From: a virus
Taxonomy: Duplodnaviria; Heunggongvirae; Uroviricota; Caudoviricetes
IMG/VR virus record: IMGVR_UViG_2541047730_000004
Reading direction: 5' to 3' (one strand)
Length of the DNA: 42,322 nt
The notes beneath the pieces are model-generated. The model did no database searches and was not told the DNA's origin. It saw only the letters and a list, made by a program, of their open reading frames with translations. Position 1 is the stretch's first letter. Every line of letters starts with the position of its first letter. The translations under genes were made by a program, and so were the position numbers. Positions 7,693 to 37,223 of this stretch are shown piece by piece.

Positions 7693-7711
7693 TATTACCT
7701 TAAAGGTAATA
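7693..7711. promoter_or_regulatory. Operator palindrome TATTACC-TTAAA-GGTAATA (perfect 7-5-7)
   Basis: Perfect inverted repeat in the divergent intergenic region between 6946..7674 (-) and 8074..8730 (+). Confidence 0.6.
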
Positions 7712-7804: not shown

Positions 7805-7894
7805 TTACATCGCACTCCTCTTGTGCCATAGTAATCGGGCACTGGCAAAATCCAGTGCCGGGATTGGTCTCCCGGATTACTAAGTGGCGCATAC

Positions 7895-7917
7895 CACGCC
7901 AGACGTGGTTTTTTTAT
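7895..7917 (+). terminator. Intrinsic terminator-like hairpin inside the 400-bp leader upstream of the AntA-like gene
   Basis: CCACG-CCAGA-CGTGG followed by TTTTTTT; a longer stem-loop (GCACTGG...CCAGTGC) lies at about 7838-7862. Confidence 0.4.
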
Positions 7918-8073
7918 GCGTATAGCACAGTCATGCCAGAATTATGGTGGGCTGAATGGGGGTCCGAAAGGACGCCGGTACCACTTAGGCCGGTAAGACC
8001 AACTCCGTTCAGTTCACCACCATCTGATTGGTCTCAGCGGTGGTGATGTAATTCGCTAAGTGGAGACGCCATC

Positions 8074-10451: not shown

Positions 10452-10523
10452 GTCGTTAATTCCTATACGTAGTTTTACGATACTGAAGCCCTGACGGTCT
10501 GGCCACCGTTGGGCTTCGCTGTT

Positions 10524-22966: not shown

Positions 22967-23959
22967 TTACACCACACGGGCTTCTGTTTCCAGAAGCGCA
23001 TCAGTTTCACGGATTGGTACACCACGGAATGAAGTCCACCACTCGCCTTCTGTCTCTTTTACGCTGATCGCCAGAGATGTTTTCTCCAGAGATTGCAGAT
23101 CAAGAGCCTGGCCTACAGTGCGGTTCATGTAGAACACCGGGCGACCCATTCCACGGTTTGGAATGCGATGCAGTGCTTTAACCATCAACTTCGCAATATT
23201 TGCGGCAGAGGAAGGTTCTGAAAGATTGCTGACATCGATGTTTGCAATGCGAACAACATAACGCCAGTCACGCAGAGCAAGTCCGTTGTCCCATTTGTAA
23301 TGGGTGCGATAGCCTTCGTACTTGCCGCCATTAGCATCTTCCAGTGTCACCTGGCCTTTATCTTCCATCTGGATGCCAGCCTTCTGCCCTTTCGGGAAGA
23401 TGCCATGCACGGTGTTTTCGCCCCACACCACTAACCAGATTGAGGTGTTATCTGTACCCGTGCCACCAGCATCAATGATGTTCTGAGCATTACCCGCAGA
23501 CAGGCTGGAATAGCGGGAGGACAGTCCCATAAACTGCTGAGGGTTAACGCTGGAATCACCATAAAACAGTGTCTGCGCCATCTGCTGATTCATCGCTTCA
23601 ATAAATGCGCGGTCTTCAGACAGGCGGAATTCGGCGGTATTACCGTTCAGATCAGCCAGTGACTTATCGACTTCAGCATAGGTTTCCAGCATGCCAACGG
23701 AATCGGTGACCTGCACTGTGGTTGATTTGCTTGGCTGTACACCATAGTTCAGCAAACGCCAGGTAGCTGAAGGTAAACCAGAACGAATGGTGGTTCGGTG
23801 TCCGGTAGGAAGGTTCCCTTCGACAAAAGGCATATCCTGAAGGATCGGGTTAGTTTGACCGAGAAGCTCGATAATCTTATCGACTTTCCCGTTTGGATCG
23901 ACGCGCTTACCCCAGTCAGCCAGCGTTAGCGCAGTTAAGCCTTTAACAGCCATTGTCAT
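22967..23959 (-). CDS. Major capsid protein
   Basis: 330 aa directly after a scaffold-like gene and downstream of the portal; composition and size typical of HK97-fold podovirus capsid proteins. Confidence 0.75.
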   Translation of the reverse strand: MTMAVKGLTALTLADWGKRVDPNGKVDKIIELLGQTNPILQDMPFVEGNLPTGHRTTIRSGLPSATWRLLNYGVQPSKSTTVQVTDSVGMLETYAEVDKSLADLNGNTAEFRLSEDRAFIEAMNQQMAQTLFYGDSSVNPQQFMGLSSRYSSLSAGNAQNIIDAGGTGTDNTSIWLVVWGENTVHGIFPKGQKAGIQMEDKGQVTLEDANGGKYEGYRTHYKWDNGLALRDWRYVVRIANIDVSNLSEPSSAANIAKLMVKALHRIPNRGMGRPVFYMNRTVGQALDLQSLEKTSLAISVKETEGEWWTSFRGVPIRETDALLETEARVV

Positions 23960-23967
23960 TTCCTCTC

Positions 23968-24669
23968 TTATTTGCCATAGAGCACTTCGGCCGCACTACG
24001 CTGGCCTTCATTACCACCGGTGACCATGCCATCTTCAGACATCGCCTTTCCGATTTTCACGAACGTTTTGACCAGATCAGGGTGATTACCCAGCCCGGTG
24101 GTGTTCAGATATTCTTTGAGTTCAGGTGTCCCGAACTGGTCAAGCGCACGCTGTGCGGCGCTAAGGTTAGAAATCAACTTGTCGCCACCGATTTCTTTGT
24201 CAGCTTTTACATCCGCAGCCCACTGCTCGGTTGTTTTCTGCCAGGCTTCTACCTGGCGCTGCTGAACACCTGCCAGAATCTTCGGATAAGCATCAACCAG
24301 CTTTTGCGCTTGCTCGTTGGTCAGGTTTAGTTCTCGCGCCACCGGCTCGAATTCCTTCAACGCTTCTGTATCCAGCTCTACGCCTTCGGCAGCCTGAAAC
24401 TCGTACTTCTCAGGCGCACCCTCTGGTTTATCGCCGTCCTTTTTTTCATCCTGCTTATCGTTTTCAGGATTTTTGTCATCAGCAGGTTTATCGCCATCAG
24501 CAACAGGTTGTGACTTATCACCTTCCGGTTGTGATGGATCACCAACTGGAGCATGGTTATCACCTGCAGGCGCTGACGGTTCTGACGCAGCCGGAGCTGC
24601 TCCACCATCGACTGGTTGCTCATTGCAAAGACGGCGATACAGCAAACGCTCAAATAAATTCATGATCAC
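23968..24669 (-). CDS. Scaffolding protein
   Basis: Acidic, Pro/Asp/Lys-rich low-complexity N-terminus followed by helical segments; located between portal and capsid. Confidence 0.65.
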   Translation of the reverse strand: MIMNLFERLLYRRLCNEQPVDGGAAPAASEPSAPAGDNHAPVGDPSQPEGDKSQPVADGDKPADDKNPENDKQDEKKDGDKPEGAPEKYEFQAAEGVELDTEALKEFEPVARELNLTNEQAQKLVDAYPKILAGVQQRQVEAWQKTTEQWAADVKADKEIGGDKLISNLSAAQRALDQFGTPELKEYLNTTGLGNHPDLVKTFVKIGKAMSEDGMVTGGNEGQRSAAEVLYGK

Positions 24670-24962
24670 TCCTGTTCACTGGCCTCTTTGGCCATCTTCA
24701 AATACTGTTCAGGGCAATGCGCCATAACGCGCTGAAACAGTTCCAGCGCCAGATTGCGTTGCCCCTCATTAAATGCCATTGCCATAGCGTCCATCGGTGA
24801 GATAGCGGAAAACACACGGCCTTTCTCCAGCACCGACCAGACAACGCGACGCCCCTGTTCACTGCTCATGACAAAGCGAATGTCATCAATTTCACGCTGC
24901 GCCATGTCACGTTGCTTACGGGCGTTTTCTTCTTTCAGTTGATCGTCTTCGTAATCTGTCAT
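24666..24962 (-). CDS. Hypothetical small protein between portal and scaffold
   Basis: 98-aa ORF, translationally coupled. Confidence 0.45.
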   Translation of the reverse strand: MTDYEDDQLKEENARKQRDMAQREIDDIRFVMSSEQGRRVVWSVLEKGRVFSAISPMDAMAMAFNEGQRNLALELFQRVMAHCPEQYLKMAKEASEQE

Positions 24963-26638
24963 TGTGATTGCCCACCCTGACCACTAACTGCATTCGCCAT
25001 AGCTGACAACACACTCGGATCCGAAGTTTTAGCTTCGCTTAGCGTCTTGGCCCCCTGTGCCGCCGCCATCCCCATCGCCATCATTTGTTGCTGCTGTTGT
25101 TGCTGTGCCCGTTGCTGGCGAGCCTGCTCAACCTGTTCCTGCGGAACAATGACGGTTGGAGACACTCCGGACATATCAGCGAATGCATCGATCGCCTGAT
25201 CAACGTTGAGTTTGTCGAGAGCTTCTGGTTTCGCTTGCGCAAGTTGACCAATGAAGTTAACCGTGGACGCCAGACTGGACAGGCCGATAGACTTCTGCGC
25301 CTGAGCCATGACGGAAATGTATTCGACCTTCAGGGGCATGCCTTCCATCGCGTCAGGCGGTGGCGGCAGCATGTTTTTGCGCACCATCATCGAGAAAGCG
25401 CGGTCAATGAGAGGATTAAGACATTCGTCGTTCAGACGCTCCAGAACCGGCCCCAACATCAGAAGTTTTTCTTCTTTCATTTCGATCACCGCTTCAACAG
25501 GCATCGAGCGGGTATTGATGTTCTGCAACATCATGAACAGATCGACAAAGTAGGCGCTGTTAATGATTTGACGAGTGTCCTGAATGTCTGCCACCAAATC
25601 TGCTGTACTGGGGTTAACCAGATAAGCAGGCCTGAAGCCATCCTGACCAGTAATCTGATCGATATACGTGATGTCGCCAGGAAGAAGGGAGGCGCGCTGA
25701 TTCTTGAGGGAAGTCGGAGCAACCATCGGCGGATTGGTGGCTTTATCAATCAACTGCGACTTGCGCTTCTGGAGAAGCTGCAATGCCTTAACAGGTCCAA
25801 GCGCCAGCATACCCGGGCATGATGATCCATAAACATCTTCGCCGTTAACTTCCCAGCGCGGAGCCATAATTGGAAACTCATCGAATCCGGACTCACGCAA
25901 CAACTTGTCGTTATCTCCACCAACCTCGTAATAAACCGATTTGAATGGCTTGTTCTTGCTATCCAGCTTCGATGTATCGCGGTCAATGTTCGGGTAAACC
26001 GAATGCATCACTTCGATCCACTTCTCGTAGGTGCCGCTTTCCCACATGCTTTTTACGGATTCGCTGACGTTATTTAGCCCGAACTCCTGAACAAGCTGAC
26101 GAACAGTCATAGAGAACTTGCGAAAACAGGTGTCAACACTGCCACGAGGTGAGTTAGCCAGGTAGTAACTGCCTATCGGGAATGGCATTGTGCGAATGAT
26201 GTCCTCGTCATCCTCCAGCACTGCCATTGCACCAGTGCTGTATGTGCCGAGGCTTCCGTATAACTGCGGAAGAGACTGGTAGAGATTCGACTTATTGAAC
26301 ATATCGTTCATGCGGTTCTGAACTGCCTCAAGCCACAACTTAACAGGGCCATAATCCATCATTTCAGGATCTGGCGTAGCCAGGCGAAACCACGGACGCG
26401 CGGGGCTTGTGATGCCTGACATCATGCCGCTGGCGAGAGTGCGCGCCGCCATAGTCCCGGTCGAATCAATAATGCGTGTATTGCGCCGATCGTTACGGTT
26501 GGCCTCAGAAGTCAGAAAGCGGGAACCACGCGGGTTGATGTAATCACTCAACTCGCGCCAGTGCGGCTCGAACGACTGACGCTCGCTTTCAAGTTGTGCG
26601 AACTGTTTGTTCAATCGCTCTTTAGTTGTTTCCGCCAT
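24959..26638 (-). CDS. Portal (head-tail connector) protein, T7 gp8-like
   Basis: 559 aa; N-terminus MAETTKERL... and the Q/A/M-rich C-terminal tail (QQQQQQQMMAMGMAAAQGA) resemble T7-type connectors; first gene of the virion operon. Confidence 0.75.
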   Translation of the reverse strand: MAETTKERLNKQFAQLESERQSFEPHWRELSDYINPRGSRFLTSEANRNDRRNTRIIDSTGTMAARTLASGMMSGITSPARPWFRLATPDPEMMDYGPVKLWLEAVQNRMNDMFNKSNLYQSLPQLYGSLGTYSTGAMAVLEDDEDIIRTMPFPIGSYYLANSPRGSVDTCFRKFSMTVRQLVQEFGLNNVSESVKSMWESGTYEKWIEVMHSVYPNIDRDTSKLDSKNKPFKSVYYEVGGDNDKLLRESGFDEFPIMAPRWEVNGEDVYGSSCPGMLALGPVKALQLLQKRKSQLIDKATNPPMVAPTSLKNQRASLLPGDITYIDQITGQDGFRPAYLVNPSTADLVADIQDTRQIINSAYFVDLFMMLQNINTRSMPVEAVIEMKEEKLLMLGPVLERLNDECLNPLIDRAFSMMVRKNMLPPPPDAMEGMPLKVEYISVMAQAQKSIGLSSLASTVNFIGQLAQAKPEALDKLNVDQAIDAFADMSGVSPTVIVPQEQVEQARQQRAQQQQQQQMMAMGMAAAQGAKTLSEAKTSDPSVLSAMANAVSGQGGQSQ

Positions 26639-26652
26639 TTCAATGACTCCGG

Positions 26653-26859
26653 TTACTGACCAAGCAGCGTTTTACCGCTGGTATTAGCGGTTGATGTGTC
26701 GCCCTGAGAACCGGTAAGCAGCGTAGAACTACGACCAGCAGCAGCGCGACGGCGACGTGTTTCTTCGTCGCGGGCATCAACAACGGCAGCATCCTGCTCC
26801 TGTGGTGCTGCCTGAACTTCTGGTGTTGCAGGCACTGATGGTGAGCTACCCATGCACAT
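26653..26859 (-). CDS. Possible small ORF upstream of portal
   Basis: 68-aa Ala/Pro/Thr-rich ORF ending 15 bp before the portal start; no motif support. Confidence 0.25.
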   Translation of the reverse strand: MCMGSSPSVPATPEVQAAPQEQDAAVVDARDEETRRRRAAAGRSSTLLTGSQGDTSTANTSGKTLLGQ

Positions 26860-26946
26860 ATCAATGACTCCGTACGCAATTAAATTATCACCAATTTAAC
26901 CACATATGATTTATTTATCGTAGATAGTTGACATTTAACGCGCGAA

Positions 26947-26966
26947 TTATTACCTTTCAGGTAACT
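26947..26966. promoter_or_regulatory. Operator palindrome ATTATTACC-TTTCA-GGTAACT upstream of the virion operon
   Basis: TTACC-N5-GGTAA family; a TTGACA hexamer lies at 26928-26933 on the plus strand. Confidence 0.5.
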
Positions 26967-27286
26967 AAAGAGTTCATTCCGGTTACTAACCTGACTGGCT
27001 TGTCGTTAAATTGAACAGGTGGAGTGAGCTTTTATTTTGAGCAGTACGGCGTATGGCACATGCGACGATAGCGGTCTGGATACGTTTAAGGGGCACCCTC
27101 CCTTGCTCGGGCAAACGAACCAGGTAGCCGGAATGTGCAAGTCGAGCGGTTTTATTCCGCGCACGGGGATTCACCATCCCGGCGATTCGGTGTGACGCCT
27201 CGGAAGAGACGAGGGTACAACGATGAGAGCATTTATGGAGCCGCGACAAAGTGTGGTGCCTTAACAGGCTAAGTGCTCTCAGCGTT

Positions 27287-27363
27287 GTGGCATTAGCTCA
27301 GTTGGACAGAGCAACCGCCTTCTAAGCGGTTGGTCGCAGGTTCGAATCCTGCATGCCACGCCA
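27287..27363 (+). tRNA. tRNA-Arg (anticodon UCU, reads AGA)
   Basis: Cloverleaf by hand: acceptor GTGGCAT/ATGCCAC, D-arm GCTC..GAGC, anticodon stem ACCGC/GCGGT with loop CTTCTAA, T-arm GCAGG-TTCGAAT-CCTGC, discriminator G, encoded CCA. Confidence 0.85.
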
Positions 27364-27406
27364 GAATCACGCCTAAGGACCGTGATGCCAGAAGTTCCAG
27401 GGGCTT

Positions 27407-27449
27407 GGCGGTGATGGTTTCCCTTGAAGGACTATCACCGCCCTTTTTA
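27407..27449 (+). terminator. Terminator-like hairpin downstream of the tRNA
   Basis: GGCGGTGAT...ATCACCGCC stem (9 bp, long loop) followed by CTTTTT. Confidence 0.45.
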
Positions 27450-27526
27450 CAGCAGGACGCCATTGCGATGACTTCATGCTGTAAACCAGTACAGCCACGG
27501 AAGGCATAACTCATTGCTTCCAGTTC

Positions 27527-27550
27527 GCCCGGTTCGCCGGGCATTTTTTT
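27527..27550 (+). terminator. Rho-independent terminator
   Basis: GCCCGG-TTCG-CCGGGC followed by ATTTTTTT. Confidence 0.65.
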
Positions 27551-27565
27551 GCTTGATGACCGCAA

Positions 27566-27582
27566 ATTACCTTAAAGGTATA
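27566..27582. promoter_or_regulatory. Operator palindrome ATTACC-TTAAA-GGTATAA overlapping a consensus -10 (TATAAT 27578-27583)
   Basis: TTACC-N5-GGTAT; TATAAT hexamer; candidate -35 TTGATG at 27553-27558. Confidence 0.5.
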
Positions 27583-27585
27583 ATC

Positions 27586-28404
27586 ATGAAAAACTTCAAG
27601 GTAATTAGCATGTTTGAATCCTTCAAAGAGCTGTTTTTATCTACTGCCAATACTGCCGTGAATCGAGCCAAAAACCCTGTGCTTGGTGCTTTTGTTATGT
27701 CCTGGTGCGCCTTCAACTGGAAATCAATTCTTTATCTATTTTTTAGCAAATCAAACATAATAGATAAAATTTCATATATCTCAGATAACAGCACATGGAA
27801 AACTGTTATGTTTTATCCATGCTTATCTGTAATTGCTATCTGCTGCCTATTACCATGGGTAAACAATATCATTAACGTATGGCAAGCAAAGCCTCTTGAT
27901 AATAATGACTCAATCGATAATCACCTGAAGGCAAGAAAAATCCAGCGTGAAACCAGACTGCAGAGGTTATTGGCTAAAAAAGATGTTACATACGACAAAG
28001 TTAAGACTGGCGCGGAAAAAGACATCCAAGAGATGAAAGAAGAGATTATTCGATCAAAGAATAGTATGGGGGAATTGACTGCCGAGTTGAAAGCTAAAGA
28101 TGACGAATTGAGATCCGCCAGTGCTCAGTTAGCAGCTCTAAATCATTCATTAAAAGAGATATCGGAAACTCTGGGAAGAATGAATGAGGCATATAAGACC
28201 CTCCAAAATGATTTCGACGAATACAAACTCAAATACCCTGAAAAATCTCAAATAAAAAGTCTTGCACTTGGCAACGGCCAAACAATTAGCAACTTTTTGG
28301 AGCAACACAACTTATCCGGATTAAAATCTGGTAAGCCAGACGTTTTTAATAACTTTGGTGTTCTATCTGGATTATCAGGTTTCGAGGATAAAAATAAAGA
28401 CTAA
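27586..28404 (+). CDS. AT-rich cargo gene: membrane protein with two N-terminal transmembrane helices and a C-terminal coiled-coil (candidate abortive-infection/exclusion protein)
   Basis: Opposite strand to the flanking late genes, markedly AT-rich, own promoter and operator. Hydrophobic segments PVLGAFVMSWCAFNW and FYPCLSVIAICCLLPWV, then a heptad-rich K/E/L region. Alternative start at 27610 with an AAGG RBS. Confidence 0.55.
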   Translation: MKNFKVISMFESFKELFLSTANTAVNRAKNPVLGAFVMSWCAFNWKSILYLFFSKSNIIDKISYISDNSTWKTVMFYPCLSVIAICCLLPWVNNIINVWQAKPLDNNDSIDNHLKARKIQRETRLQRLLAKKDVTYDKVKTGAEKDIQEMKEEIIRSKNSMGELTAELKAKDDELRSASAQLAALNHSLKEISETLGRMNEAYKTLQNDFDEYKLKYPEKSQIKSLALGNGQTISNFLEQHNLSGLKSGKPDVFNNFGVLSGLSGFEDKNKD

Positions 28405-29876
28405 GCATATGGATCGTACTCGGTAAGCGCCTTGCCTTGCTGGTTCTGCTGCCCGGGAAGTCGCAGGCGCTTCGACACCGGGAAAGCAAACGTCAGCAGC
28501 AGCGCATCGCCTTTACCCGGCGAACGCCCAAGTCGCTCTTTGATATCTTCCTTCGGTTCGATAACGATTTTACCGTCCACTCGAACTTTGTACTCTGCCG
28601 CCGACAGGTCGTCTGCAGTTTCCTGGTCATCCAGCATGCCGCCCAGCCTCAGCCATGTCTTACATGAGTTGAACATCTCCCCACGCTTGTTGAGCATCTG
28701 CGGGTCAGTAGACGCGCCACCGAACGGAACAAGTTGCCATGTACGACCCCAGCCGTCACCGATTGACTTCAGACCAGTTCCGTAACCGAAGTCGATGAAC
28801 ACTGCGTCAGCCTGGTACTGGTCTTCAAAGTCAGCGATACGCTTCGCCATAATCAGATCGTCAGTGGTCTTGTTGCCAGTCCACAGCACCTTACTGTGCA
28901 GCCCCTGCCGCAGGTATATCACAGCGTCATCAACGCCTGAGTATGCCGGGTCAACGCCGATTATCACCGGAGCATGTGCAACCTGCGCAGCGGTGACCAC
29001 CCGTTTCATTGCCTCGTCAGTAAGTCCGGTAGGGATAAACTGCAATTCAGATGCATCCGGGAATATGCCGCGCACACGGATTTTAACGAAGTCGCTGTCT
29101 TCCCCGTAGTCATCAACCCATTTCTGCAACTGCTGTTTGTTAGTGCCTTCCACCGTCCGGCTGTCAATCTGCGCAGTTTTCCAGCGGTGTTTATATTTGC
29201 GGAAACATTCGCGGAAACGCCCGGTGTTACGTGTAGGGTTTCCGAACGCCACCCAGATAATCTCAGTGTCTTCGTCCGTAAGCGCACCCTCAGCAACTTC
29301 CCACACCAGATCCGCAATGTTCGACGCTTCATCGAATACCACGATGATGCGTTTGCGCTCGTTGTGTAGTCCGGCGAATGCCTCAGTGTTGTGCTCAGAC
29401 CAGGGGATTGCGTCAGCTCGCCACCGCTTGTCGTGCCCAGGATCATTGCTGTACATCGCGGTAGCGGTACAGGTAAACCAGTCTTTCGTGATAGCAAGGT
29501 TCGACCACTTGATAATTTCCGGCCAGGTCTTCGTTCGTAGCTGGTTGTCGGTGTTGGCGGTCACCACGACCTTACAATCCTCGCAAGTGGACATGCCCCA
29601 GTTGATCAGCATTGAGATGAATGCGGATTTACCAATACCGTGACCAGAAGCGCGTGCCAGCATAAGCGGCTGATAGCGCGTCGCTGGATTCTGCAGGTGA
29701 TCACGTATCTCTCGGAACGCATCAGCCTGCCACTGACGTGGGCCGGTAGCATGTGCCAGTTCAGTCCCTTCTTCCCCCCACGGGAACGCATAGAGGGCAT
29801 AGCCAAGCGGATCGTGAGTGAACCCTGCAATATCCTCGATCAACTGCTCTTCAGGAGATAACGCTGTATCTGTCAC
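28401..29876 (-). CDS. Terminase large subunit
   Basis: 491 aa; ATPase P-loop-like GHGIGKS and Walker B-like IVVFDEASN in the N-terminal half, acidic nuclease-type C-terminal half; follows the small subunit with overlapping stop/start. Confidence 0.85.
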   Translation of the reverse strand: MTDTALSPEEQLIEDIAGFTHDPLGYALYAFPWGEEGTELAHATGPRQWQADAFREIRDHLQNPATRYQPLMLARASGHGIGKSAFISMLINWGMSTCEDCKVVVTANTDNQLRTKTWPEIIKWSNLAITKDWFTCTATAMYSNDPGHDKRWRADAIPWSEHNTEAFAGLHNERKRIIVVFDEASNIADLVWEVAEGALTDEDTEIIWVAFGNPTRNTGRFRECFRKYKHRWKTAQIDSRTVEGTNKQQLQKWVDDYGEDSDFVKIRVRGIFPDASELQFIPTGLTDEAMKRVVTAAQVAHAPVIIGVDPAYSGVDDAVIYLRQGLHSKVLWTGNKTTDDLIMAKRIADFEDQYQADAVFIDFGYGTGLKSIGDGWGRTWQLVPFGGASTDPQMLNKRGEMFNSCKTWLRLGGMLDDQETADDLSAAEYKVRVDGKIVIEPKEDIKERLGRSPGKGDALLLTFAFPVSKRLRLPGQQNQQGKALTEYDPYA

Positions 29877-30469
29877 TGATTGCCATCCTGACGTTCTTTC
29901 AGTCTCTTCCTGGCTGCCGCTATGCGATCAGCAATTGTCACATTCACATTAACATCCAGGCGTTCTTTGAACGCGTTGACATCAACATGCTTACCAATCA
30001 GCTCAAGGTTCTTCACCTTGTCAGGCCATTTAATTTTTTTGAGGATTGTCTCTATCGAATCCTCGTTCATGTTCATGATGGTCGATGACAGATCAAAGCC
30101 GCTAAGCGTAGTGCGCCAGATTTTCGGCCACTCACGGATTGGTTTAAGGCTCCCATCGTCGTTGAGGATGTCGATCACGTCCATCTGGTCGATCTCCACC
30201 AGGCGCATGAGAACGTAATCAGCACTGACGCGCATTCGTTTGTTGCGCTCCTCCATCAACTCGGCAATCCGTTTTTGAATGCGTTCATCGCGCATCATGA
30301 CACTGGCTTTAACTGCCGCTGTATTTGGGGAGAATCCTGCGTTAATCGCTGCCTGAGTCTGGTTTTCAGGCGTTTTGATGTATGACTGGCAATAAGCCTC
30401 CTGCATTGCTGTTAGTGGCTTAAATTGCGTTGATTTGCGTTTATAGGTTTTAGGTTCAGCAGGCATCAT
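29873..30469 (-). CDS. Terminase small subunit (Terminase_2/P27-like HTH)
   Basis: Motif YCQSYIKTPENQTQAAINAGFSPNTAAVKAS matches the small-terminase HTH signature (N.TQAAI.AG(F/Y)S..TA). Start taken at MMPAEP because the longer ORF to 30547 runs through a terminator hairpin. Confidence 0.75.
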   Translation of the reverse strand: MMPAEPKTYKRKSTQFKPLTAMQEAYCQSYIKTPENQTQAAINAGFSPNTAAVKASVMMRDERIQKRIAELMEERNKRMRVSADYVLMRLVEIDQMDVIDILNDDGSLKPIREWPKIWRTTLSGFDLSSTIMNMNEDSIETILKKIKWPDKVKNLELIGKHVDVNAFKERLDVNVNVTIADRIAAARKRLKERQDGNQ

Positions 30470-30510
30470 AACCACCGTGGTAATAGTTACCGTTGTGGTA
30501 ATAGTACCAT

Positions 30511-30540
30511 GCAAAATAAAGCCGCCATAGTTGGCGGCAG
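30511..30540 (-). terminator. Rho-independent terminator immediately upstream of the terminase genes
   Basis: GCCGCCA-TAGT-TGGCGGC hairpin followed on the minus strand by TTTATTTTGC. Confidence 0.55.
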
Positions 30541-30587
30541 TATTCAAAACCCGTCAAATTCATCATGCATAATCTACTCGTGACATG

Positions 30588-36182: not shown

Positions 36183-36199
36183 ATTACCTTTAAGGTGCG
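36183..36199. promoter_or_regulatory. Operator-like site ATTACC-TTTAA-GGTGCGA
   Basis: TTACC-N5-GGTG; between the cro-like gene and the cII-position gene. Confidence 0.4.
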
Positions 36200-36253
36200 A
36201 ATAGATATGAAAAGACCGCCGGGTGGCGGTCTACAGAGGGGTGTAGCTGGATA

Positions 36254-36484
36254 TCATGAGTAGAAGAAGTATGCCAGTTCTGCTTTTGAGCGCAACCATT
36301 GTCTTGTTTTACAGGCTTTAAAAAGCCCATTCATCAATACTTTACCTGGCATTTTGCGCTTACCTGTTAAGTGAGTCTGGATATAGTGACTCGTCGTTCC
36401 GGCTTCCTGTGCGAAGGCTTCACGCTCATCCGGAGTAAGTGCAAGCCAGTGCTTTTTGAAATCGAAATGTTCGTTATCGCTCAT
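36254..36484 (-). CDS. Cro-like small HTH regulator
   Basis: 76 aa, divergent from the CI-like gene across an operator-containing 154-bp region; HTH-like segment AGTTSHYIQTHLTGKR. Confidence 0.5.
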   Translation of the reverse strand: MSDNEHFDFKKHWLALTPDEREAFAQEAGTTSHYIQTHLTGKRKMPGKVLMNGLFKACKTRQWLRSKAELAYFFYS

Positions 36485-36496
36485 AGCTATTGCCTG

Positions 36497-36520
36497 ATAT
36501 TTATTTCAGATAATAAATAT
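36497..36520. promoter_or_regulatory. AT-rich 9-6-9 palindrome ATATTTATT-TCAGAT-AATAAATAT in the switch region
   Basis: Perfect inverted arms; may be a promoter element or a second operator type. Confidence 0.35.
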
Positions 36521-36550
36521 TCACCCATAAGGTAACAAAAATCAAGGATA

Positions 36551-36585
36551 GTTACCTATGAGGTGCATTTACCTGTTGGGTAATA
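36551..36585. promoter_or_regulatory. OR-equivalent: two adjacent operator sites
   Basis: AGTTACC-TATGA-GGTGCAT and TTTACC-TGTTG-GGTAATA between the cro-like and CI-like genes. Confidence 0.6.
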
Positions 36586-36638: not shown

Positions 36639-37223
36639 ATGAAAAGTATCCAGGACGTCCGCAGGCAAAATCTCAACGACTTGATCGACCGTGAATTCAA
36701 TGGTGTTCAGACGCGGATGGCAGAAAAACTTGGAACTCAGGCAAATCTGGTAAACCGCTGGGCTCTTGGCAAGAAGGTTATCGGCGACCAGGTTGCGCGA
36801 AAAATTGAAGCTGCCGCCAATAAACCACGTAACTGGCTTGATATCGATCGCTCGCTTTCTCAGGAAGGTTTTCAGCCTGTCGGCCCAAGCGACATTGGTC
36901 AGCTGGCGGCTCACAACCTGGAACGCTGGATGAGCGAAAGCCGCGACCTTTCAACACAGGGAAAACTTCACCGCGCATCCGGCGTCGCCCAGGTGACAAT
37001 CAGCCGCCTGTTAAACAATGAGGTCAGCGTTTCCATTTCCACCCTGGAGAATGTTGCATCCGCATTCGGGCGTCACGGCTATGAATTACTGATTCACCCG
37101 CACGACCCTGCGACCATCAACTATGACCGCTCGCGCTACGCATTGTTACCCGAAACCGAGAAAGCAAAGATCGAAAGTTATATTGAATTTGTCATCAACC
37201 AGAACGAAAAAAACAAACAATAA
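36639..37223 (+). CDS. CI-like repressor with two HTH (XRE-type) segments and no LexA-like peptidase domain
   Basis: HTH-like RMAEKLGTQANLVNRWALGKK and ASGVAQVTISRLLNNEVSVSISTLENVASAFG. No Ala-Gly / GDSM / Lys autocleavage signature. Divergent from cro; terminator and OL-like sites downstream. Confidence 0.65.
   Translation: MKSIQDVRRQNLNDLIDREFNGVQTRMAEKLGTQANLVNRWALGKKVIGDQVARKIEAAANKPRNWLDIDRSLSQEGFQPVGPSDIGQLAAHNLERWMSESRDLSTQGKLHRASGVAQVTISRLLNNEVSVSISTLENVASAFGRHGYELLIHPHDPATINYDRSRYALLPETEKAKIESYIEFVINQNEKNKQ

Follow-up and report, generated by a model that had tools for sequence, protein, structure and literature searches.

Accessory slots of prophages are a proven source of anti-phage genes. 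Among the closest described systems is SieB of phages lambda and P22 (PF14163), a small membrane protein that aborts rival phages and whose gene is expressed in lysogens. Phage T4 makes Imm and Sp, small inner-membrane exclusion proteins that appear early in lytic infection and keep competitors out. In phage P1, accessory genes are wired into the regulon of the master repressor. Here we describe a gene, hereafter the cargo gene, that lies on the plus strand between the minus-strand terminase and portal genes of IMG/VR virus record IMGVR_UViG_2541047730_000004, an Escherichia coli prophage of the phiV10/epsilon15-like (Uetakevirus) type. The window is the whole stretch of this record (42,322 nucleotides, 42.3 kb), it corresponds to IMG/VR contig UViG_2778261642_000007, and its gene order is that of the annotated phiV10 and epsilon15 records. 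The cargo gene adds a new, uncharacterised example to a familiar class, the phage accessory gene in a polymorphic slot, and its product is the first to be examined from a very large phage-borne protein family (~1,400 clusters at 50% identity).

Like sieB, the cargo gene is a lone opposite-strand accessory gene with its own promoter, and its 3′ end abuts the stop codon of a convergent essential gene, which is N or gene 24 for sieB in lambda and P22 and the large terminase gene (TerL) in the window. In contrast, the two proteins share no sequence relationship, SieB has no long coiled coil and the cargo promoter carries a putative repressor operator. The likeness to T4 Imm and Sp would lie in the proposed logic, exclusion of competitors from an already infected cell in lytic development; they differ in coming from a virulent phage and in having neither a coiled-coil stalk nor a hypervariable end. 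The reading that we favor, with a probability of roughly 0.35, is that the cargo protein is an inter-phage exclusion factor at the inner membrane face, made on derepression and shielding the phage-producing cell.

The Cargo Gene Occupies an Exchangeable Slot

An earlier annotation, made from the letters of the window alone (the first-pass annotation), had described a plus-strand unit splitting the minus-strand terminase and portal genes, composed of a tRNA gene, two terminator-like hairpins, a promoter and an AT-rich gene. All of these elements were recovered at the locus, as follows.

24959–26638, minus strand: portal gene (head-tail connector; a flank, outside the slot), a 559-aa open reading frame (ORF) syntenic with PhiV10p07 and epsilon15 gp4
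27287–27363, plus strand: tRNA-Arg(UCU) with encoded CCA (ARAGORN; Rfam tRNA, 73.3 bits)
27407–27452, plus strand: terminator-like hairpin 1 (hairpin proper 27407–27442), a 14-bp stem and then CTTTTT (terminator scan)
27527–27550, plus strand: terminator-like hairpin 2 (hairpin proper 27527–27542), GCCCGG-TTCG-CCGGGC and then ATTTTTTT (terminator scan)
27556–27584, plus strand: cargo sigma-70 promoter, −35 ATGACC at 27556, 17-nt spacer, −10 TATAAT at 27579–27584 (10 of 12 consensus positions)
27567–27581: putative repressor operator TTACCTTAAAGGTAT, a palindrome over the spacer and the first −10 bases (motif scan, one mismatch)
27610–28404, plus strand: cargo coding sequence, 264 aa, PHROG 4780, with a Shine-Dalgarno sequence AAGG(T) ~7 nt upstream
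28401–29876, minus strand: TerL, large terminase gene (slot flank), an ORF syntenic with phiV10 and epsilon15

The unit had been taken for a single insert that included the tRNA and the hairpins, and this part of the description did not survive comparison with relatives. Over 26600–28500, the window is 98–99% identical to phiV10, the O157 typing phages 9 and 10, phiv142-3 and TL-2011b, in the outer parts only. Megablast similarity to phiV10 and TL-2011b stops at 27550, right after hairpin 2. In phiV10, TL-2011b and phiv142-3 the sequence from the portal gene to 27550 is common and then diverges, and the match resumes at the TerL stop codon; thus, the exchangeable module is 27551–28401, without the tRNA and the hairpins. 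The same tRNA sequence and hairpins are present in these three phages, which carry other cargo or none, and the tRNA is absent from epsilon15 and from a Salmonella prophage (L008). The tRNA and both hairpins are phiV10-type backbone, not cargo, a separation that matters for cloning or deleting this region.

Codon usage was also compared. AGA makes up four of the eight arginine codons of the cargo gene (15 per 1,000 codons), reaches 10–14 per 1,000 in the tailspike gene and two large virion/injection genes and is 0 per 1,000 in the TerL, portal, major capsid and repressor genes. Because AGA is as frequent in the tailspike and large virion genes, the tRNA serves the phage generally and is no companion of the cargo. 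Across the phage genes (region 22967–3495) AGA use is bimodal, which is consistent with a mosaic origin and a need for the phage tRNA-Arg(UCU).

The slot itself is polymorphic. In phiV10 and epsilon15 it holds the gene for a 123-aa protein of the Gp49/Sf6-gene-66 family (PF13876, E 6e-35), in TL-2011b an unrelated 116-aa gene and in phiv142-3 a remnant only, with no gene. When complete E. coli genomes were searched with both flanks joined, both flanks were found in 502. Slot lengths in an evenly spaced sample of 25 records with both flanks were ~480 bp (the Gp49 family, where named), 524–546, 854–855 (the window's allele), 944, 972, 678, 293 and 133 bp, corresponding to at least six slot states. 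The coding region for the N-terminal part of the cargo protein family was detectable in 62 of 5,426 E. coli genomes, compared with ~502 that carry the backbone. Since viable relatives carry another gene or nothing in the slot, the cargo gene is non-essential; it is dispensable and exchangeable, and the earlier designation as accessory cargo is supported. Neither of the two findings that the first-pass annotation had named as refuting its reading was obtained: the gene is not a conserved virion component, and its product has no clear structural homologue.

The commonest alternative occupant, the Gp49/Sf6 gene 66 family gene, takes the same position on the same strand, between hairpin 2 and the TerL stop. 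Unlike the cargo gene, it encodes a soluble product and lacks a dedicated promoter; the hairpin is followed directly by its ribosome-binding site, and a bidirectional terminator lies behind the gene. In two E. coli prophages (L011 and L012), the promoter of a 246-aa cargo allele is preceded by the remnant of the terminator that follows the phiV10 Gp49-family gene, which suggests that modules were stacked or replaced stepwise in the slot.

The cargo and TerL genes overlap by 4 nt at their stop codons, TAA at 28402–28404 on the plus strand and TAG at 28401–28403 on the minus strand. The terminator scan found no plus-strand terminator after the cargo stop, and the cargo gene runs into the TerL stop. 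With the two genes convergent and no terminator between them, their transcripts should collide. In phiV10, the TerL stop is TAA and the bidirectional terminator separates TerL from the slot gene.

The Cargo Promoter Is Built Like the Repressor-Controlled Promoters of the Phage

The promoter with a TATAAT −10 box overlapped by an operator motif was confirmed. Regulation of the cargo gene had, however, been called self-contained, and the promoter is instead built like the phage's other repressor-controlled promoters. The motif TTACCTnnnAGGTAA, with up to two mismatches allowed, occurs at 17 sites in the window versus 0.87 expected, a number that none of 100 shuffles equaled, and the cargo palindrome is no chance match. 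Sites of the form TTACC-N5-GGTAA span 2950–37357 (for example 6575, 7695, 8797, 26950, 30487, 34238, 36521–36583, 37281 and 37343). Operator-like sites stand at nearly every transcription unit, including those of the terminase, portal and tailspike genes, and they crowd around the repressor gene (36184–36583, 37281 and 37343). In a common design (6575, 7695, 26950, 34238, 36569 and 37343), the right half-site GGTAA leads into a −10 box of the TAAnAn type. The cargo promoter has the same GGTA/−10 design, with the last A replaced by T to yield a perfect TATAAT.

The GenBank record of epsilon15 labels the same palindromes "protein_bind: repressor, lysogeny," including the equivalent of the 26950 site; in that record, such sites precede the terminase, portal operon and tailspike and surround the gene for the repressor. 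The repressor of the window (36639–37223) matches the SPC32H Rep structure 5D50 (E 4e-42). From the epsilon15 annotation, the motif statistics and the Rep homologue, we infer that the palindrome is the operator of an SPC32H-type Rep. Copies of the gene in Uetakevirus contexts from E. coli, Salmonella and Klebsiella keep the −35/operator/−10 block upstream, and in a Uetakevirus-like prophage of Pantoea the family copy is closely preceded by a distinct variant of the operator. The right half-site is decayed in two independent lambdoid contexts, Klebsiella phage KO-TP1 and a Pantoea locus (L017). On these sequence grounds the cargo gene is probably a Rep regulon member that is kept repressed in the lysogen, and the likeness of its promoter to the phage's repressor-controlled promoters favors lysogen repression over the expression of a classic moron.

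This organization recalls the C1 regulon of P1, in which one repressor acts at many scattered operators: the 17 operator-like sites of the window are distributed over lytic, late and accessory units, and the window also has a P1-like C4/isrK antisense RNA region. It differs from P1 in that the repressor is of the SPC32H Rep type, not C1, and in that the window operators are palindromic. Matches above the Rfam gathering score were found on the plus strand at 7839–8024 and 10453–10520, to isrK (67.7 bits), C4 antisense RNA (61.2) and sar RNA (45.2). These matches suggest an antisense-controlled antirepressor region in the style of P1 and P22, flanked by the perfect operators at 7695 and 8797.

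A Conserved Membrane Module Carries a Hypervariable Coiled Coil

The cargo gene had been described as strongly AT-rich and ~270 aa long, with a start at 27586. The composition was borne out, with a GC content of 37% for the cargo ORF versus 47.6% for the whole window and ~0.53–0.55 for the flanks, but the start was not. All 35 of the 35 aligned homologues begin at the equivalent of 27610, with the consensus M-[LFI]-x-S; PHROG 4780 aligns only from residue 9 of the longer reading; and the transcription start predicted from the TATAAT box falls downstream of 27586. The 27586 start was therefore rejected and the protein has 264 aa. Its parts were delineated as follows.

27676–27882, plus strand: predicted membrane hairpin consisting of helix 1 (residues 23–45), a short acidic loop and helix 2 (residues 63–91), from hydropathy and AlphaFold2 (AF2)
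27883–28233, plus strand: predicted long stalk helix (residues 92–208), continuous with transmembrane helix 2 (TM2), from AF2 and the alignment
28234–28401, plus strand: C-terminal tail of low confidence (predicted local distance difference test score, pLDDT, <50), probably disordered, ending KNKD and varying between alleles

The protein had also been said to match no nameable family. This holds for Pfam (where the SieB family PF14163 does not appear even at E ≤ 10), NCBIfam, PADLOC, the PDB and BFVD, none of which gave a meaningful match, but not for PHROG, where it belongs to PHROG 4780 by a full-length profile match (E 4.2e-137, residues 9–272 of the longer reading against positions 1–267 of the 275 in the profile). 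Its N-terminal part has further relatives in PHROG 13369 and PHROG 35327, and all three PHROGs are labeled "unknown function." The best matches in PADLOC-DB 2.0 (DndD at 3e-5, PbeC, LmuB and JetC) cover only residues ~95–260 and correspond to SMC-like coiled-coil arms. No domain common to 85 diverse family members emerged from Pfam, the only PDB sequences that a profile search matched were coiled coils, and in the literature we found no paper on the cargo gene family or on Uetakevirus exclusion.

A first AF2 model, computed from 36 close homologues, was poor (pLDDT 65.6), whereas a second, computed from 85 diverse sequences, reached a pLDDT of 84. The deep-alignment model contains helices at residues 2–19, 23–45 and 50–60, a single helix at residues 63–208 with pLDDT values of 90–98, and a disordered tail; this agrees with the long coiled coil noted earlier. 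Helix 1 is kinked at the invariant residues N36-W37-K38 in the model and the alignment. Two N-terminal transmembrane helices had been proposed. The second stands, as hydropathy marks residues 65–90 as a clear transmembrane segment, and the first is only weakly hydrophobic (1.2). Net flank charges over 84 family members are +1.6 at the N terminus, −0.8 in the loop and +1.8 after TM2, values that fit cytoplasmic N and C termini; the predicted topology is thus N-in, C-in. An Rz-like spanin was set aside, because these charges put the coiled coil in the cytoplasm; an embedded lipoprotein ORF was not looked for.

The first ~160 residues are conserved and comprise the amphipathic N-terminal helix, the membrane hairpin and the membrane-proximal part of the ~145-residue helix. 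Over 36 homologues from several genera, this region has 56 invariant positions, which include R19, N22-P23, G26, F28, A34-F35-N36-W37-K38, P70, P82-W83, Q92, P95, D97-N98 and D100-S101, and the family shares the motif TRLQRL..AK.DV.Y..VKTGAEK.IQ.M.E. Past approximately residue 160, hypervariability sets in, and the distal coiled coil and tail of different alleles cannot be aligned. Among the E. coli alleles, blastn similarity ends at nucleotide 461 of the gene, giving a sharp junction near residues 154–160. A conserved N-terminal module joined to unrelated C termini looks like the signature of an arms race, which would favor a role in exclusion.

The Family Is Widespread and Mobile

Close homologues are present in Escherichia, Salmonella, Klebsiella, Enterobacter, Citrobacter, Cronobacter and others, and every one is annotated as "hypothetical." When residues 1–162 were searched exhaustively, 1,393 representative clusters (50% identity clusters) were recovered at E ≤ 1e-3. 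The family domain is always N-terminal, in proteins of 200–514 aa with coiled coils of varied length. The slot between TerL and the portal gene holds a family member in a Salmonella prophage, in E. coli prophages (the 246-aa allele), in a Pantoea prophage, in Klebsiella phage BUCT711 and in E. coli phage EC.W1-9, and in 65 of the 69 IMG/VR loci with close relatives a TerL and/or portal homologue lies no more than 4 kb away. The cargo is a frequent, long-term and lineage-typical occupant of this slot in Uetakevirus-like phages of several genera, polymorphic for presence and absence, and not a one-off acquisition. Other locations were found in lambdoid phages: Klebsiella phage KO-TP1 carries the gene between its replication genes and its nin genes, on the opposite strand, and a Pantoea prophage has it in co-directional orientation in the early-left region. 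These lambdoid locations show that the family is mobile.

Possible Functions of the Cargo Protein

In the reading of the cargo protein as an exclusion factor made on derepression, Rep would occupy the operator and keep the cargo gene silent, or nearly so, in the lysogen, and infection or induction would switch it on together with the lytic genes. The protein would then reside in the inner membrane, its N and C termini both cytoplasmic, and project a coiled-coil stalk of ~17 nm, which presumably oligomerizes. Anchoring and the effector role would fall to the conserved membrane module, and specificity to the variable distal part. What is protected would be the phage-producing cell, against rival phages, and not the lysogen. 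If the protein is an exclusion factor, it would define a new anti-phage family; and if this reading is true, temperate phages also invest in protecting the lytic cell, a function that lysogen-only screens would miss. A more specific version has the two-helix module carry a diversifying cytoplasmic coiled-coil "antenna" that recognizes parts of competitor phages and is repressor-wired in Uetakeviruses for exclusion in the producing cell. We consider this version quite unlikely; if true, it would constitute a mode of inter-phage competition that, to our knowledge, has not been described for temperate phages.

Several points weigh against exclusion from the producing cell. No homology connects the cargo protein with exclusion or defense: hhalign comparison of the family profile gave a probability of 0.7% with the SieB proteins of lambda and P22 and of 0.4% with P22 SieA. 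The case for Rep binding consists of a GenBank annotation and of motif statistics. Such operators are likewise present at the promoter of the repressor gene itself, so that an operator alone is no proof of silence in the lysogen. The KO-TP1 copy has a decayed operator and a constitutive-looking promoter; thus, a lysogen may tolerate expression or benefit from it. The cargo gene may be traversed in the antisense direction by late minus-strand transcription. Coiled coils can diverge quickly without an arms race. Finally, residues 23–45 have a Kyte-Doolittle value of 1.2 in the window allele versus a family mean of 1.55, and the topology is a prediction.

Closest to the first-pass annotation is the reading of the gene as a classic moron expressed in the lysogen, namely a single-gene abortive-infection or superinfection-exclusion protein that protects the host. 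Such a gene would suit the opposite-strand, AT-rich one-gene module, which occupies a polymorphic slot and brings its own promoter, the anatomy shared with lambda and P22 sieB, whose end likewise abuts a convergent gene, and the variable C terminus, which is typical of sensor domains; the operator-decayed promoter of KO-TP1 further suggests that expression in a lysogen is possible. However, the −10 box is overlapped by the same operator as the lytic promoters, an arrangement kept across genera, and PADLOC, Pfam and NCBIfam gave no defense match beyond coiled-coil noise, nor is there similarity to SieA or SieB. We regard this explanation as possible but doubtful. Taken by itself, an abortive-infection or exclusion function is plausible, and a defense function of the cargo gene is a moderately likely guess. 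Lambda kil and P1 icd, which are repressor-controlled division inhibitors, illustrate another role that a promoter of the repressor type could serve, that of an early host-takeover protein perturbing an envelope process such as cell division or membrane integrity in lytic growth. Toxicity of such a protein would explain tight repression, the family gene is co-directional in the early-left operon of the Pantoea lambdoid prophage, and the transmembrane-plus-coiled-coil layout resembles that of division proteins, with weak matches of two family members to DivIC (E ~1e-3). Those matches fit composition alone, though, and the constitutive-looking promoter of KO-TP1 speaks against strong toxicity. 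A conserved host target would, moreover, leave the hypervariable distal part unexplained, and we consider host takeover unlikely.

The hypervariable distal part also counts against a helper of the phage's own development, that is, a membrane tether for replication, packaging or lysis timing. The phi29 protein p16.7, a membrane-anchored coiled-coil early protein, offers a comparison, and the apparent co-regulation with lytic genes, the position next to the terminase and the long-term residence in the slot across genera would agree with such a role. But the gene is missing from fully viable close relatives and is found in lambdoid phages with unrelated packaging and replication machinery, and we hold this role to be very unlikely. 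That the ORF is decaying or spurious and has no function is effectively refuted by conservation. A truncated 163-aa variant (P0027) in some E. coli is all that speaks for it, as opposed to the 56 invariant positions over 36 homologues, the maintenance of full-length alleles in 37–56 complete E. coli genomes and the confident AF2 model, which rests on family covariation.

A Candidate Leader RNA Upstream of the tRNA

The backbone upstream of the slot contains a further conserved element, a structured leader-RNA candidate that abuts the tRNA and lies downstream of a control region with an operator of its own.

26928–26964, both strands: backbone control region with operator TTACCTTTCAGGTAA at 26950–26964, an exact motif match
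26928–26933, plus strand: −35 TTGACA of a possible promoter, followed by a 17-nt spacer and TACCTT (read from the sequence; the consensus scan did not report this promoter)
within 26928–26964, minus strand: possible −10 box TAATAA facing the portal operon (read from the sequence)
27047–27290, plus strand: conserved structured leader-RNA candidate, ~245 nt, backbone (covariation)

RNAalifold analysis of 47 diverse copies gave a core composed of a long-range helix, a CACC...GGUG hairpin and a boxB-like hairpin, CCUCG-GAAGAGA-CGAGG. The 3′ module has a boxA-like UGCUCUC followed by GUUGUGG in the window and reads A-GUGCUCUY...GUUGUGG across copies. The word TGCTCTYW is present in 84 of the 128 leader copies versus 2.4 expected, and the module resembles boxA plus a GU-rich box. 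Compensatory changes were found at 10 of 27 leader pairs, and the alignment contains 79 double-change cells versus 18 expected. Pairing is kept at 98.3%, compared with 91.2% in shuffled alignments (0 of 500 shuffles reach the observed value) and at most 42% with partners slid. The copies were gathered by an exact 19-mer match inside helices 1–3, where invariance is thus built in, and the covariation rests mainly on helices 5 and 6. The fold z-score of the single sequence is an unimpressive −1.3, Rfam 15 gave no match to the leader at E ≤ 5 and the conserved words of the leader were not found in the literature.

Copies ~84% identical to the leader occur in hundreds of E. coli records, with no annotated RNA under the sampled matches and with "hypothetical protein" calls overlapping a few of the inspected copies. 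Copies were found in 83 GenBank phages, and at least 120 IMG/VR contigs contain the conserved 19-mer. The leader lies just downstream of a cI-like repressor gene in lambdoid phages (mEp460, cdtI and Stx2c phages) and is placed between trnI and ban in P1, P7 and D6; it is also present in phages of Klebsiella and Stenotrophomonas. At every locus for which the annotation was read, the leader is co-oriented with the neighboring downstream genes, and in several contigs it begins at most ~15 nt from a putative promoter. A co-oriented tRNA adjoins 33 of the 128 distinct copies (e.g., L006, L029, L100, L115 and L023). It is mostly tRNA-Arg(UCU), immediately 3′ of the leader and starting at the leader's terminal GUGG. 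In three P1-like copies a tRNA with anticodon CAU lies 5′ of the leader, annotated as tRNA-Ile on one P1-like plasmid. The tRNA-less Salmonella prophage L008 has the leader, and epsilon15 retains only its first ~45 nt, as if the stretch from the equivalent of 27088 to that of 27414 had been deleted.

The leader may be an antitermination or processing leader of an early operon. As an antiterminator, it may allow polymerase from the operator-controlled promoter at ~26928 to pass both hairpins into the slot gene, and such read-through would explain the expression of the promoter-less Gp49-family gene of phiV10. Against this idea, read-through would continue antisense into the terminase genes. The put RNA of phage HK022 is ~70 nt long, has two stem-loops and lies just downstream of an early promoter (PMC9378689). 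The position of the leader, downstream of an early promoter, would be analogous, but the leader is ~245 nt long. The leader is not detectably put: its conserved blocks are absent from both strands of HK022 23500–30500 (cI, PL and PR unannotated). If confirmed, the leader would be a new widespread regulatory RNA of enterobacterial temperate phages, including P1 and Stx-converting phages.

Flanking Genes

Beyond the slot flanks, the window contains the following neighboring genes.

26653–26859, minus strand: gp3-like small ORF
29873–30547, minus strand: TerS, an ORF syntenic with phiV10 and epsilon15

In related prophages, the homologues of the portal protein contain PF12236.

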